A DNA stretch of 64,000 bases from an uncultured cyanobacterium (GTDB lineage: Bacteria > Cyanobacteriota > Cyanobacteriia > PCC-6307 > Cyanobiaceae). The notes under the pieces are model-generated. The model worked only from the letters and a program-made list of their open reading frames with translations. It was not told the origin of the DNA and did no database searches. Location: the NCBI GenBank assembly GCA_963697335.1, contig CAVONQ010000003.1:1-64000 (forward strand), read 5' to 3'. Both the position numbers and the translations under genes were made by a program. Below are positions 1-4,545 of the stretch, in pieces (within the stretch, counting starts at the first letter, position 1; every line of letters starts with the position of its first letter).

Positions 1-4
1 GTAG

Positions 5-150
5 GGCAGAAGGCCTTCGTACCCGCTGGCAACCATGCTGCGGATTCACCTGCTGCAGCAGTGTTGTTTACTCAGTGATCCGGCAAGAGATCTTAATTGA
101 GGTACCTACCATGCGCCGCTTTGCCGGGATCGACCTGATCAGTGACCGGT
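5..150 (+). pseudogene. IS5-family transposase remnant (frameshifted, truncated)
   Basis: Manual translation gives GRRPSYPLATMLRIHLLQQCCLLSDPA, then in another frame LIEVPTMRRFAGIDLISDR. This matches the IS5 transposase N-terminal motif. There is an in-frame stop upstream and a frameshift. Confidence 0.8.
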
Positions 151-225
151 CGCAGTGAGGGTTAGATCGATTGTGAGCTGGTACAGGCGGTGCTGCCCCC
201 ACCCCCAGGGCTGATTCAAAGTCTC

Positions 226-791
226 TCAGCAAGAGTTGGCTGCCGGTTGCCGCTGCGCCATGGCCAACAGCGCTGTGATGTCGTGGCAGACAGCCTGCAT
301 CCCTGAACGGATGGACTGAAAGCCGCCCAGTCGCAGCAGGTTGAGAGCGGCTGTCCGCAGCGTCGCCAGCGCTCCGGCGCCGTTGCCCCGATAACGGTGG
401 GCGTCCTCATGCAGCTGGGTGTCACGGATCCAGTGCCAGCTCTCAATGCTCCAGCGGTCGCGCACCAGTTGCAGCAGGGCTTCTGGGGTGGTGCGCAAGC
501 TGGTGAGGAAGAAATGGGTCTGCCGGAAGGTCTTGCCATCGCGGGGCCCGTCGGCGGCCATCTCCACAATCCAACTGGTGCCGCTCCAGGTCTCGCGGAT
601 GTGCTCCGGTGCCTGCTTGGCGCGGAGCGTCCAGGTGATGGCACGGCCGTGGCTGATCTCATGATCCGTTGCCACCAAAGGGATGTGGCGTTTCCCCTGG
701 AACTGGCTGCGGATCTGACGGTGCAGTGTCTTTTGGTTCCTCTTAACGGTCAGGAGGAAGTCGGCCCCCTGCTCGGTGAGCTGTTGAAAAA
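226..791 (-). pseudogene. ISAs1 transposase, C-terminal half
   Basis: FQQLTEQGADFLLTVKRNQ...VRDRWSIESWHWIRDTQLHEDAHR...LATLRTAALNLLR, the ISAs1 W-x-IE..HW..D..EDA motif. Confidence 0.9.
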
Positions 792-1050
792 CATCCCCAG
801 CCCCCAAGTGGCTCCCTTTGGTTCTGTAACACCCACGGCAGATCTACTGCAGAACCCTCAGAATTTAGACTGGGAGATGACATTCCGTTGCCGGAACCTT
901 TTTGGAGGTTTACCCCCGTCGAAAAACATGGCACGGAGCCTGCTGCGGCCTATTGCCTGGTGACAAATAGAAGTTCTCTAGAAACTTTTTTTTGATCCCG
1001 TTTAGGAAACTGCCACTCTTGCGTCAGCTCTGTTTGTCGTCTCCCCTTCC
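792..1050 (+). ncRNA. Putative IS110 bridge/seek RNA
   Basis: Non-coding left end with pairable stems (792-800/870-879; 819-828/848-856; 884-892/930-937; 971-975/984-988) and segments matching the target and donor junctions (see findings). Boundaries are inferred. Confidence 0.65.
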
Positions 1051-1065
1051 CAAGCAAGGAATCCG

Positions 1066-2448
1066 ATGCCACATCCGAAATCTAGAAGGCGGAATGAAGC
1101 ACCTGTAGTTCATCAAAGTGCGGCGGGAATTGACGTTGGCAGCCGGTTTCACGTGGTCGCTATCCCCAGCAGCTGCTCAGGGGAGCCTGTTAAGAAGTTC
1201 TCCAGTTTTACAGGAGATCTAAAGCGATTGCGTGATTGGCTTTGTCAGCACAATATCAAAACCGTAGCAATGGAATCTACTGGAATTTACTGGATACCAA
1301 TTTACGAGATTTTAGAGCAGGCAGGTCTCGAGGTATTCCTTGTCAACGCCCGTCATGTTAAATGTGTCCCGGGGCGTAAAAGTGATATCTCAGACGCTCA
1401 GTGGCTGCAGCAATTGCATAGCTGGGGCCTGCTTAAAGCCAGCTTTCAACCAAGCGAAGGAGTCGCCAACCTCCGATCATTATTGAGGCTACGCGATGGC
1501 CTTGTAAAAAGCAGGGCATCACACCAGCAACATATTCAGAAAGCATTGATGCAGATGAATCTCCAATTGCACCATGTCGTAAATGACGTTATGGGCAAGA
1601 CAGGGCGCCTCATTATCGATGCAATTCTTGCAGGAGAGCGTGATCCAAGCACTCTTGCGGCTTTTCGCGACAGACGCTGCAAGAATCATGAATCAGTGAT
1701 TGCAGAAGCACTGCATGGGCATTTTAGGGAAGATCATCTTTTCGAGCTTGCAGTTGCCGTGCATATGTTTGATGAGTATTCGGCACAGATTGTAAAATGT
1801 GAGACAACAGCGCATGAGCTACTGGACAAGCTTGCACGAGCCAAGGAGGCCTTGCCTGAGCCACTTACTAAAGGCAAGGTCAAGGCAAAAAGGAAGTCAG
1901 AATATTCTTTTGATCCGACTAGTTACATCAATGCTCTTACGGGAGCAGACCTGAGTGGCATCTATGGCCTTGGCCCTGGAAATCTTCTCACCATAGTCAG
2001 CGAGTGTGGCACAGATATGGAGAAATGGCCCACAGCAAAGCATTTCACATCCTGGCTAGGCCTAGCACCACAAAACAAGATTTCAGGCGGACGTGTGCTT
2101 TCCTCGCGCACGCGGCCAGGTTCAAGCCGTGCTGGCTCAGCCTTTTGGATGGCCGCACTAATTGCGTCACGGTCGCAAACTGCAATTGGAGCATTCAGTC
2201 GAAGACTAGCGATTCGACGCGGTAAGCCGAAGGCCCATGTTGCTACAGCAAGAAAGATAGCGGAACTATTCTATAGAGCTGTTCGCTATGGTGGCTGCTA
2301 TGTGGATCCTGGCTCTGCAGACTACGAAGAGAAGCAGAAGCGACTCGCGATTGCCAGCCTCGAAAGGAAGGCTGGCATGTTGGGATTCAGCATTGTAGAA
2401 AGTCAGATATCAAGCCCCAAAGCCCTTGCGATGGAGGGTGTTACTTAG
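1066..2448 (+). CDS. IS110-family DEDD recombinase/transposase (460 aa)
   Basis: GIDVG (D), VAMESTGIYW (E), RKSDISDAQWL (D,D), and C-terminal FTSWLGLAPQNKISGG (catalytic Ser), plus AxVATARK. Confidence 0.95.
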   Translation: MPHPKSRRRNEAPVVHQSAAGIDVGSRFHVVAIPSSCSGEPVKKFSSFTGDLKRLRDWLCQHNIKTVAMESTGIYWIPIYEILEQAGLEVFLVNARHVKCVPGRKSDISDAQWLQQLHSWGLLKASFQPSEGVANLRSLLRLRDGLVKSRASHQQHIQKALMQMNLQLHHVVNDVMGKTGRLIIDAILAGERDPSTLAAFRDRRCKNHESVIAEALHGHFREDHLFELAVAVHMFDEYSAQIVKCETTAHELLDKLARAKEALPEPLTKGKVKAKRKSEYSFDPTSYINALTGADLSGIYGLGPGNLLTIVSECGTDMEKWPTAKHFTSWLGLAPQNKISGGRVLSSRTRPGSSRAGSAFWMAALIASRSQTAIGAFSRRLAIRRGKPKAHVATARKIAELFYRAVRYGGCYVDPGSADYEEKQKRLAIASLERKAGMLGFSIVESQISSPKALAMEGVT

Positions 2449-2449
2449 G

Positions 2450-3060
2450 AAAGGTTTCTGGGTGTGGAGCGCATCTGCCTGGATCAGCACCCCCTCGAGA
2501 TCCAGCTCCCCGAGCAGTTGCCGGAGGACGGCCCGCTCGTGGTTCGCGCCAGTGGCGTAGCAGGCCTGCGAGATCGCCACACCCAAGGCGGCCGAGTACA
2601 GCGTCACCTGGGCAATGAACGCCGAACCACCGCCGGGTGTGGTCTCGATCGAGCCTCGCAGGGTCTTGCCGTCACACACCAGCTGATCGAGATCTGCTGC
2701 ACCACCAGGGATCTGGGCGATCGTCCAGTCACGGATGGCCGCGCACAAGGCCGCCACATCCACCTGCAGGAAGAAGTAGCGGAACGCTGAATCCGATGGG
2801 GGCCGCCGCAGTTCAAGGCCCAGCTGCTGACCCAGCACCGAATGGTGACGGCGAGCAAACCGCTCCAGATCCCGCAAGCTTTCGCAGCCGCTCAGGATGC
2901 CCAGCACCGCCACCAGCAGCAGGTACCAGGCCGGAATGCGCACCCCCCGCCGCATGCGGGCATCCGGTATCACCTTGAGGAAGCTGATCAGATCAAGATC
3001 AGTTGCGGCAGAGGCGGTTTCGGGCACAGGGAAGGGGCGATACCACCAAACAAACCCCAT
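2450..3060 (-). pseudogene. ISAs1 transposase, N-terminal half
   Basis: LISFLKVIPDARMRRGVR...PPSDSAFRYFF...VCDGKTLRGS...HERAVL...IQADALHTQKPF (DDE residues). Start is ATG 3060 or GTG 3027. Confidence 0.9.
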
Positions 3061-3142
3061 GCAGGCAGCCCAGGCCAGAGCACCTGTGACACACTTTGAA
3101 TCAGCCCTGCCCCCACCCCTACCACTGGTTCGGGTTCCAGGT

Positions 3143-3727
3143 TCAGCCGTTGCCCTCACGCCAGCCGTCCATGTGCAGGGCTGCCAGGGCTCCACGGCTC
3201 TCCAGCAGCGCCTCCGCCAACTCCCGCACAGCGCCATGGCCTCCATGACTACGCAGCACCCAATCGGCCCGCTGGCGCAGGCCCAGGGCGGCATCTGCCG
3301 GCGCCACCAACAAGGCGGTGGCCGGCCGAACTGCCAGATCGTTGAGGTCGTCGCCGATGAAGGCCGTGGCCTCCCGGCCGCGGTCCAGCTCAGCCTGCAA
3401 CTCGCGCAGCCCCAGCAACTTGTCGCCCACCTCGGCGCGGCAATGGCGGATCTGCAGATGGCGGGCCCGATGCTCGATGGCACCGCGGCGGCCGCCGCTG
3501 AGCAGAGCCACCTCAATACCGGCGCGCTGCAGCATGCGGATCGCCAGGCCATCGCGCACGTTGAAACGCTTGGTCACTCCACCGCTGGCCTCGTAATAGA
3601 GGCCGCCATCAGTGAGCACCCCGTCCACATCGCACACAAGCAGCTTCACAGCGGCCAGCCTCGGGCCGATTGCCAGACGCCGGATCCTGGAGCGCAGGGC
3701 CTGCAAAGGAGTGGCCATGTGGGTCAA
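3143..3727 (-). CDS. kdsC: Kdo 8-phosphate phosphatase (HAD, YrbI family)
   Basis: [15 protein letters not shown] and GDDLND motifs; adjacent to kdsA. Confidence 0.92.
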
Positions 3728-4545
3728 TAGGTGCTCACGGCCAGGTCGTCCTGCACCACGGCGCGCAGCTCCATCAGCTGGCGCAGCAGGGCTTCCAGGC
3801 GATGCAGGGGCACCATGTTTGGCCCATCACTGAGGGCCTGGTCAGGGTCGGGGTGAACCTCCATGAACAGCCCATCCACCCCAGCCGCCACCGCCGCCCG
3901 GGCCAGAGGCGCCACGAACTCCCGCTGACCACCGGAGCTGGTGCCGCGGCCGCCCGGCTGCTGCACGGCGTGGGTGGCATCGAAGATCACCGGGCAGCCC
4001 AACGCCTGCATCTGGGGCACGCTGCGGTAGTCCACCACCAGGGTGTTGTAACCGAAGCTGGAGCCCCGCTCGGTGAGCCAGAGGCGGCCGCTTTCGGGCG
4101 TCAGACCGCCCTCGCCCAGCTTGTTCACCACCTGGGCCATGTCCCACGGCGCCAGGAACTGGCCCTTTTTCACGTTCACCACCTTGTCCGTGCCGGCCAC
4201 CGCCTGGGCGGCGGCCTCGAGCAAATCAGTCTGGCGGCAGAGGAAGGCGGGGATCTGCAGCACGTCCACCGCTTCGGCGGCGGCGGCGGCCTGGTGGCTC
4301 TCGTGGATGTCGGTGAGCACAGGGATCTCCAGCTGCTGTCTCACCTCTTTCAGGATCCCCAGGCCCTCCTCGGCCCCGGGCCCGCGGAACGAGCTGCCCG
4401 AGCTGCGATTGGCCTTGTCGAAACTGGCCTTGAAGACATAGCTGATGCCCAACTCGGCGCACATTTCGCTCACTCGCTCGGCCACGTGCAGCACCAGATC
4501 TCGGCTCTCGATCACGCAGGGTCCGGCAATCAGGCGGAAGCTCAT
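3724..4545 (-). CDS. kdsA: Kdo 8-phosphate synthase
   Basis: [54 protein letters not shown]. Confidence 0.97.

Follow-up and report, generated by a model that had tools for sequence, protein, structure and literature searches.

A predicted RNA-guided IS110-family element at one recurrently used short site of ISAs1-family insertion sequences in a picocyanobacterium-like genome

Insertion sequences (ISs) of the IS110 family that are guided to a fixed target, including targets within transposons, are already known; IS4321 and IS5075, for instance, reportedly target the ends of Tn21. For IS621, the papers on its bridge RNA describe a guide order in which the segment that pairs with the target's bottom strand comes first (Durrant et al. 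2024, PMC11208160; Hiraizumi et al. 2024, PMC11208158). For the IS1111-type elements that use seekRNAs (ISEc11, ISKpn4, ISPa11), a further paper gives sub-terminal repeats of approximately 11–13 bp, terminal extensions of 7 and 3 bp beyond these repeats, and a non-coding region that normally lies downstream of tnp, the gene for the transposase, with rare exceptions such as ISMtsp17 (Siddiquee et al. 2024, PMC11187229). The locus considered here lies in a stretch of 64 000 nucleotides (‘the window’, positions 1–64 000 of contig CAVONQ010000003.1, assembly GCA_963697335.1, from an uncultured cyanobacterium of the Cyanobiaceae), at the beginning of which an IS of the ISAs1 family is interrupted by an IS110-family element. 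As detailed below, the insert is very probably an IS110-family element, still intact, which transposes through site-specific recombination under RNA guidance and has its guide set to one short site inside ISAs1-family ISs; both this member and its target are new.

The outer ISAs1-family element spans positions 206–3109 on the minus strand, as read from the sequence and its open reading frames (ORFs). Members of this family have terminal inverted repeats (TIRs) of approximately 14–22 bp, target-site duplications (TSDs) of approximately 8–10 bp and a single transposase ORF. The perfect TIRs and perfect 10-bp TSD that the first-pass annotation, made from the letters alone, had described are indeed present: the 17-bp TIR beside the 3′ end of the transposase gene (206–222, CAGGGCTGATTCAAAGT) is the reverse complement, at 17/17 positions, of that beside its 5′ end (3093–3109), and the TSD (CCCCCACCCC) is identical at 196–205 and 3110–3119. 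The transposase gene is found in two pieces on the minus strand, namely an orfA part (2452–3060, with an ATG start at 3060–3058; DDE_Tnp_1_assoc, Pfam PF13808) and an orfB part with the DDE domain (226–789; Pfam DDE_Tnp_1), which is free of stop codons and is read in the −1 frame with respect to orfA. The two pieces matched adjoining segments of NF033564, the ISAs1 transposase model (a profile of one 314-position protein with a cut-off of 70 bits), at positions 2–150 for 2452–3057 (77.4 bits) and at positions 154–314 for 226–789 (100.2 bits), and are thus the two halves of one gene. Uninterrupted relatives of this ISAs1 element have a length of 1244 bp. Two ISAs1 relics were also noticed elsewhere in the own genome, one at C9:83798–84412, which has an internal deletion, carries a run of five A at the site and ends with its contig, and one at C6:776–1655, a copy 67–74% identical.

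The IS110-family element occupies positions 792–2449 on the plus strand (1658 bp without the core), as defined by its junctions and by Pfam and NCBIfam matches, and is bordered on each side by the dinucleotide AA as core. The nesting proposed in the first-pass annotation therefore stands, while its approximate limits of 790–2451 are resolved into the element proper and its two core copies, at 790–791 (from the AA borders of related elements) and 2450–2451 (from the sequence itself and the junctions of relatives). To the left, arithmetic on the junction and uninterrupted copies places the left target (LT) GTTGAAA at 783–789, which on the ISAs1 coding strand corresponds to the frameshift T-run plus four nucleotides; to the right, uninterrupted copies and the junctions of relatives place the right target (RT) AGGTTTC at 2452–2458. 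This register was set by uninterrupted sites, one in the own genome and 26 copies in relatives, together with the junctions of 25 related elements, all 25 of which have AA at both borders; AA flanks the element in the window, at the loci L030, L108 and L109 and in 21 relatives. The own uninterrupted site is an ISAs1 fragment (C7:135000–135517, GAGCTGTTGAAAAAAGGTTTCTGG) that is 99–100% identical to the ISAs1 of the window, and most uninterrupted copies in relatives read ...G(YY)GAAAAACGG.... Once the IS110 element and one AA are taken out, the site has its uninterrupted length again, and contigs from other sequencing runs that skip exactly 1660 bases (from 789 to 2450, or from 792 to 2453) represent the empty form. 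AC was tried as an alternative core and rejected, the right junctions of relatives (TTAGG/AA/GATG) being without AC.

Within the element, a non-coding left end of 274 nt (792–1065, no plus-strand ORF, with blocks conserved in L109 and in relatives with 56–60% amino acid identity) precedes an intact plus-strand gene for a DEDD transposase of 460 residues (1066–2448), the stop codon of which is 1 nt from the end of the element. The protein is recognized by PF01548 (DEDD_Tnp_IS110, 79.2 bits), PF02371 (Transposase_20, 52.6 bits) and NF033542 (‘IS110 family RNA-guided transposase’, 233.7 bits, cut-off 140), it distantly matches the IS621 transposase structure 8wt6 (E 6e-8), and against its L109 homologue it shows a dN/dS of 0.035. 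A sub-terminal inverted repeat links the two ends (GTAACACCCAC at 826–836 and GAGGGTGTTAC at 2434–2444, complementary at 10/11 positions, nine of them contiguous); it reaches 13/13 in the 56–60% relatives (GAAACACCCACGG and CCGTGGGTGTTTC) and gives the D_anti signal of the k-mer map in at least 90% of the 25 elements. With an N-terminal DEDD/RuvC-like and a C-terminal Transposase_20 domain, a short core on both sides and a long non-coding end with a predicted loop complementary to both target strands, and being without terminal inverted repeats or a long TSD, the insert shows these traits of the IS110 family. It is present in a single copy in its own genome (18 contigs, 2.58 Mb, 68% G+C). In the L109 copy, ATA replaces the ATG of the window’s transposase gene (L109:1795–1812) and the longest ORF starts from a GTG 41 codons later; that copy may be decaying.

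The tabulation of the flanks of other copies, which the first-pass annotation had named as the way to check its proposal of a parasite specific for ISAs1, supported the proposal. Close copies were found by transposase, by IS110 DNA or by placing contigs on the window. The transposase search returned 202 relatives in genome contigs and at least 559 in metagenome contigs; among the best 80 of each, only L030 (100% at the amino acid level), L108 (98%) and L109 (74%) exceed 61% identity, and all three are inserted at the corresponding position of ISAs1 and share one orientation with the window copy, with both junctions seen. A DNA search of 401 genomes of the family matched 12, the own genome included, and yielded G309 as the sole close relative, in the form of a left-end relic flanked by GAGCTGCCGAAA/AA/CATCCCCC. 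Three further cases came from contigs of four runs, each of a different study, once these were aligned to the window: in the unrelated run X7 one contig of 1701 nt extends across both junctions (766–2466); in run X4 one contig (749–957) crosses the left junction and another, ending at 2451, continues into CGGGCGCTGGGTA, another ISAs1 variant; and in the RNA-library run X15 a contig (763–895) crosses the left junction. Hence, of the close copies that were found independently of ISAs1 and reach a junction, all seven occupy the homologous site in ISAs1, their orientation is the same wherever readable, and the prevalence of copies outside ISAs1 that would have spoken for a different habit was not seen.

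These data also bear on the suspicion that two repeats were misjoined during assembly, which might be raised because the region falls within 3.1 kb of the start of contig C3 and both elements are repeated in the community. Since the same nesting is found in L030, L108 and L109, all from other assemblies, and both junctions are spanned by one contig of run X7 (1701 nt), such an artefact is scarcely conceivable.

A more substantial objection is that the ISAs1::IS110 composite arose only once and has since been inherited or mobilized in trans by intact ISAs1 elements. At first sight the L109 composite, which is approximately 72–80% identical to that of the window throughout (71.7% at the nucleotide level for IS110, 73.5% and 79.9% for the ISAs1 parts), resembles a case of co-divergence; the window composite, with its intact TIRs and perfect TSD, would in principle be mobilizable; and L030 holds a nearly identical IS110 in a different context, with 2.1 kb of upstream DNA that has no match in the own genome. 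However, in the window and L109 both ISAs1 halves evolved under purifying selection (dN/dS of 0.10 and 0.17 at a dS of approximately 0.9–1.1, with no stops or frameshifts on either side), unlike what is expected of a split gene. Their low dN/dS and open frames indicate that the two diverged as working genes before being interrupted, and, since they did so, at least the insertions of the window type and of the L109 type, whose transposases are 74% identical, are separate events. Furthermore, in L030 and L108 the IS110 element is far closer to that of the window than the surrounding ISAs1 parts are (in L030, 99.8% with four differences in 1657 nucleotides against 95.9% and 98.7%; in L108, 97.2% against 82.7% over 52 nt and 59.8% over 657 nt, gapped), in run X4 the same IS110 right end is joined to a different ISAs1 right-target variant, and the covariation of guide and target in relatives, discussed below, suggests that the clade chooses its sites. 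A single ancient insertion as sole explanation is thus largely refuted and is considered very improbable: the same ISAs1 site has been entered repeatedly and independently in diverged ISAs1 variants. As to the additional proposal that the composite hitchhikes when mobilized in trans, no evidence for it emerged, and none of the other composites offered a readable TSD (that of L109 is without one, and contig ends truncate those of L030 and L108); in L030 the ISAs1 parts are approximately 5 to 17 times more diverged than the IS110, which speaks against movement as a unit. That both insertions in the window are recent, as had also been suggested, is indirectly indicated by the absence of stops in the ISAs1 halves and by the 99.8% identity of the IS110 with that of L030.

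The nature of the target emerged from the uninterrupted ISAs1 copies. In the first-pass annotation, removal of the insert was taken to rejoin the transposase gene in one open frame within a run of T; the location in the T-run was correct, whereas the rejoined sequence (...HTQKPFFQQLTEQ...) is not one open frame and needs a −1 shift at CC(G/T) TTT TTC, a conserved feature which that annotation had missed. Of the 29 family loci with an ISAs1 piece (L189–L217), 27 could be scored for frame (L198 and L210 have no anchor motif), and with L191, an occupied relic, set aside, 26 uninterrupted copies remained. The two-frame layout is native to all 26: orfA is in frame 0 and runs on for approximately 12 codons past the site (...PFF.SS.SRGPTS[S/C]*), and the DDE part (...VF[Q/R]QL.EQGADFLLTVK...) is in frame −1. 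The frame is open across the junction in 25 of them; in L199 it is closed by a stop two codons further on. The site itself reads GTTTTTC in 22 copies and CCTTTTTTC in one, the run being absent in three, and a conserved GGAGCAGGGGGCCGACTTCCTCC lies downstream of the shift site. Several of the genomes are single-contig assemblies, so that the layout is not attributable to homopolymer errors. A programmed −1 shift, or an equivalent recoding, would therefore take place at CC(G/T) UUU UUC in the ISAs1 message. No report of frameshifting in ISAs1, and no paper on IS110 elements in ISAs1, was found in the literature searched, which excluded most subscription journals; the copies considered here may form a frameshifted ISAs1 subgroup, or frameshifting may be a feature unrecorded in the papers found.

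The ISAs1 piece is widespread, being present in 154 of the 401 family genomes, and in run X7 the contig depth of the ISAs1 parts, a summed depth and not a copy number, is approximately 2 to 25 times that of IS110. In the own genome the motif G[TC][TC]GAAAAA[AC]GG is rare, with two occurrences, one of which is an ISAs1 relic. The nearest target-like sites outside ISAs1 in that genome (C18:~424531 on the minus strand and C18:386734; GGCGAAAAAAGGTTTC and GCTGAAAAACGG) are both empty. Among the uninterrupted copies, the T-run is replaced by CCGTTTACGGGC or TTTGTC in L189 and L201 (and L206), which keep the two-frame layout; L189 and L201 show three mismatches to the left guide of IS110 and no slippery run. 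These run-less copies could be escape variants or dead copies.

The first-pass annotation had also pointed to a putative guide matching the insertion site. By aligning the left ends of the window group and of the 56–60% relatives and by an unbiased 6-mer map of the 25 elements, a bridge RNA or seekRNA core of approximately 172 nt (873–1044, plus strand) is predicted, in which two guide-like segments fit the site. RNAalifold on 19 left ends returned 49 pairs, 22 of them with changes on both sides; the closing stem of the core (873–881 with 1036–1044, alignment columns 82–90 with 254–262) has both-side changes in six of eight pairs. Inside it, a putative target loop is closed by a stem whose 5′ arm at 885–893 pairs with 929–936 (columns 94–102 and 140–147; both-side changes at three of eight pairs, in two, three and six sequences) and holds an inner hairpin GGAGG...CCCCC (904–917; columns 113–118 and 125–129, mostly invariant). 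The guide-like segments fall on opposite sides of this one internal loop: AACCTTTTT, at 895–903, complements the top strand across core plus right target at 9/9 positions, and GUCGAAAAA, at 918–926 (DNA, GTCGAAAAA), has the sense of left target plus core, matching its own site at 8/9 positions, and is followed by CAU (918–929). The 9/9 fit of 895–903 is to the target variant with six A, found in the own C7 copy and in L193; that of 918–926 rises to 9/9 at the L109 site, or 12/12 with CAT included, CAT (CAU in the RNA) being the first three nucleotides of the element. A third segment, UUAGGAA at 1002–1008, with the sense of right end plus core, would be a donor guide and gives the D_sense signal in at least 90% of the 25 elements. 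IS110-family RNAs have a second loop that complements both sides of the donor, the junction of right end and left end; here the complement of AA plus CATCCCC, expected of a second donor guide, was sought on both sides of 1002–1008 with nothing consistent found.

The match is unlikely to be fortuitous in the sense that, among 1000 mononucleotide shuffles of the left end, a 9-nt sense match arose in five and a 9-nt antisense match in five, and both together in none. Across the 25 elements, a sense match to the respective target falls at one place of the left-end alignment in at least 90%, and an antisense match at a second place in approximately 70%. Target and RNA segment also change together in the relatives: a left flank of AGGAA, AGCAA or AGAAA is accompanied by the same change in the RNA segment (GGAAA, GCAAA, GAAAA), and right targets GATGTC, GTTGTC and GAAGTC by GACATC, GACAAC and GACTTC, respectively. 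By taking into account these guide-like loop segments, the covariation in relatives and the recurrent independent insertions, the earlier proposal that the IS110 is programmed for the ISAs1 site was upheld. A single-sequence fold of the left end was no better than those of shuffles (z −0.26), only the alignment fold being informative, and an Rfam scan of window positions 1–3600 with E up to 10 gave no RNA family in the left end and one chance lncRNA match (E 4.6).

The left guide (918–926) pairs in full with 11 of the 26 empty sites (eight of them with one G-U pair), with one mismatch in 13 and with three in two. The right guide has no mismatch in one, one in five, two in 10, three in nine and four in one. 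Since the left guide fits the empty sites better than the right one, the left half-site appears to carry most of the specificity; that the left half-site alone is well matched in L108 and L109 was likewise missed in the first-pass annotation. The right guide fails past the A-run in these two copies, so that either recognition of the right half is loose or the L108 and L109 insertions were half-matched. A 2026 preprint is said to deal with ‘half-match recombination’, which may be relevant to half-matched insertions.

It could be argued, from the same pairing data, that there is no programming for ISAs1 at all, and that the element enters any short A/T run of a G+C-rich genome, only the insertions into dead-end DNA such as ISs surviving selection. 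Both guide segments match best at the A-run, the match of the right target past it fails in L108 and L109, and insertions of an IS in an IS are expected to be neutral. Yet the own genome offers 42 G[TC][TC]GAAAAA sites while every junction observed falls at a single ISAs1 position, with a single orientation; the matches reach past the A-run, to GYYG on the left and to GGTT on the right in the window; and guides and targets of the relatives are without an A-run (AGGA/AA/GATGTCA) and covary nonetheless. Indifferent insertion into A/T runs is for these reasons judged improbable, although a little less so than a single ancient event.

With anatomy, recurrence, independence of the insertions, and complementarity and covariation of guide and target as the observed facts, the following sequence of events would account for site-specific parasitism of ISAs1, which is itself well supported. 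The target would be the run GTTTTTC(N2)C at which the ISAs1 transposase message shifts to the −1 frame or, in the orientation of the window, G-Y-Y-G-A-A-A/AA/(A/C)GG. An RNA of approximately 170 nt from the left end (~873–1044) would fold into an internal loop presenting the guides, and the transposase would swap strands at the AA core, leaving AA at both borders. As ISAs1 is constrained to keep the frameshift run, the target would remain recognizable across diverged ISAs1 lineages. Insertion would part orfA from the DDE domain and so disable that ISAs1 copy, and the landing site, which is multicopy, would probably be without cost to the host. RNA guidance of the insertion, and with it production of the RNA, its binding by the transposase and its directing of the recombination, are read from sequence and so predicted. 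No junction of the circular intermediate that elements of the IS110 family form, and no loose end at 792 or 2449 outside ISAs1, was seen among the contig matches listed, which is not evidence of absence.

Several points weigh against this reading. The close copies are few and in part related to one another. Occupancy is low, an ISAs1 piece being found in 154 of 401 genomes and a right-end/ISAs1 junction in only three, and two of these three (in G090 and G247) are relics of putative IS110 identity. The RNA is a prediction, its donor-binding part is half assigned with UUAGGAA alone found, and the contigs of the RNA-library run X15 on the element cannot prove transcription. The window’s own left target has one mismatch to its guide (C opposite A), the right guide has two or more mismatches at most empty sites, as counted above, and, its pairing in L108 and L109 being confined to the A-run, it fits sites of the window and L030 type alone. 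Finally, the order of the guides, with the top-strand complement first, is the reverse of that given for IS621.

The right-end-like remnant of 24 nt in G090 and G247 (...TTTTCAGGAGTCCCTACTTAGG/AA/), found at the ISAs1 site, was not counted as a third IS110 lineage. It was not accepted as an IS110 end, since 18 of 19 nt are also found in G146 with no IS nearby, and TTTTCAGGAGTCCCTACTTAGG was not found on any full-length element among 223 loci. The remnant loci are L191:1469–1494, L218:1480–1508 and L221 (G146:C1:2517675–2517693).

The wider clade was studied through the relatives with 56–60% amino acid identity (L004–L014, L031–L036 and L110–L125, with L015:957–2456 and L003 added for the IS3 target). 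No ISAs1 is found in their flanks. They insert at ...TCAGGA/AA/GATGTCACC, which matches an IS3-family terminal repeat, and their rejoined target (e.g. CCCCGGTTTCAGGA/AA/GATGTCACCCC) agrees with one end of an IS3-family element seen in G309:C63 (NF033516, 200.7 bits); 14 of 21 relatives have a homologue of IS3-type transposases in their right flank. From the match of these targets to IS3-family ends, the wider clade also lands in other ISs. It is tempting, although at slightly less than even chances, to regard the whole as a picocyanobacterial clade of guided IS110 elements that are obligate hyperparasites of ISs, with a guide re-set between IS3 ends and the ISAs1 frameshift site (the latter in the lineages of the window and of the 74% identical L109). 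The T-run would have been chosen as one that ISAs1 cannot change without loss of its transposase, the run-less CCGTTTACGGGC variants (2/26) would be escape mutants, and the clade would have an architecture intermediate between IS110 and IS1111, combining sub-terminal repeats and the guide order of IS1111 with a non-coding region upstream.

A comparison with the described systems shows both shared and distinct features. As in IS4321 and IS5075, a DEDD-transposase IS has a fixed target inside another mobile element, sub-terminal inverted repeats and site- and orientation-specific insertion; unlike in these, the target is inside the ISAs1 transposase gene, at a frameshift site, rather than in a TIR, the transposase gene is preceded by the long non-coding region, and the host is picocyanobacterium-like. 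The 56–60% relatives, by targeting IS3-family ends, are closer to the IS4321 habit. With IS621 (PMC11208160, PMC11208158), the non-coding left end upstream of the transposase gene is shared, as are a loop with one side matching left target plus core in sense and the other complementing core plus right target, a 2-nt core on both sides and an RNA core of approximately 170 nt. The locus differs from IS621 in its distant transposase (E 6e-8, 460 residues), in its core (AA here, CT in IS621), in its sub-terminal inverted repeat of 10–13 bp and in a donor loop that is half assigned. With the IS1111 group (PMC11187229), the element shares the guide order, 895–903 (the top-strand complement) being 5′ of 918–926, and the sub-terminal inverted repeat (10/11 here), and differs in having the non-coding region upstream and in its terminal extensions past the repeats, which measure 34 and 5 bp. 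Like ISPpu9, ISPpu10 and other IS110 elements that reportedly target REP sequences, it uses a multicopy, presumably neutral repeat as landing site; unlike theirs, this repeat is an autonomous transposon that is disabled by the insertion.

The locus would thus offer a natural case of a transposon parasitizing another through RNA-guided targeting of a site that the victim cannot easily mutate, and a simple system in which to follow arms races between mobile elements. To the known programmable recombinases it contributes a further pair of guide and target, with AA as core, and an uncommon combination of traits of the IS110 and IS1111 types. A conserved −1 frameshift in a widespread picocyanobacterial ISAs1 subgroup emerges in addition, with a consequence for annotation practice, as automatic annotation will probably call such two-frame transposase genes pseudogenes.

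The remaining observations concern neighbouring sequences. In G309:C63:1–3135 (L015 and L003) elements are piled up: an ISAs1-like stub is followed by the IS110 left-end relic, which is split by an IS3-family element flanked by a duplication of 4 bp (CTGC) and is truncated where tnp begins, by a transposase-like sequence that is also present upstream of the ISAs1 stub. In the window, an open frame of 51 codons at 3–158 gave no Pfam match. On the other side of the composite, ISAs1 lies 33 bp downstream of the end of a gene for a HAD hydrolase (3143–3727, minus strand), which is preceded by a DAHP_synth_1/KdsA-like gene (3724–4545, minus strand).

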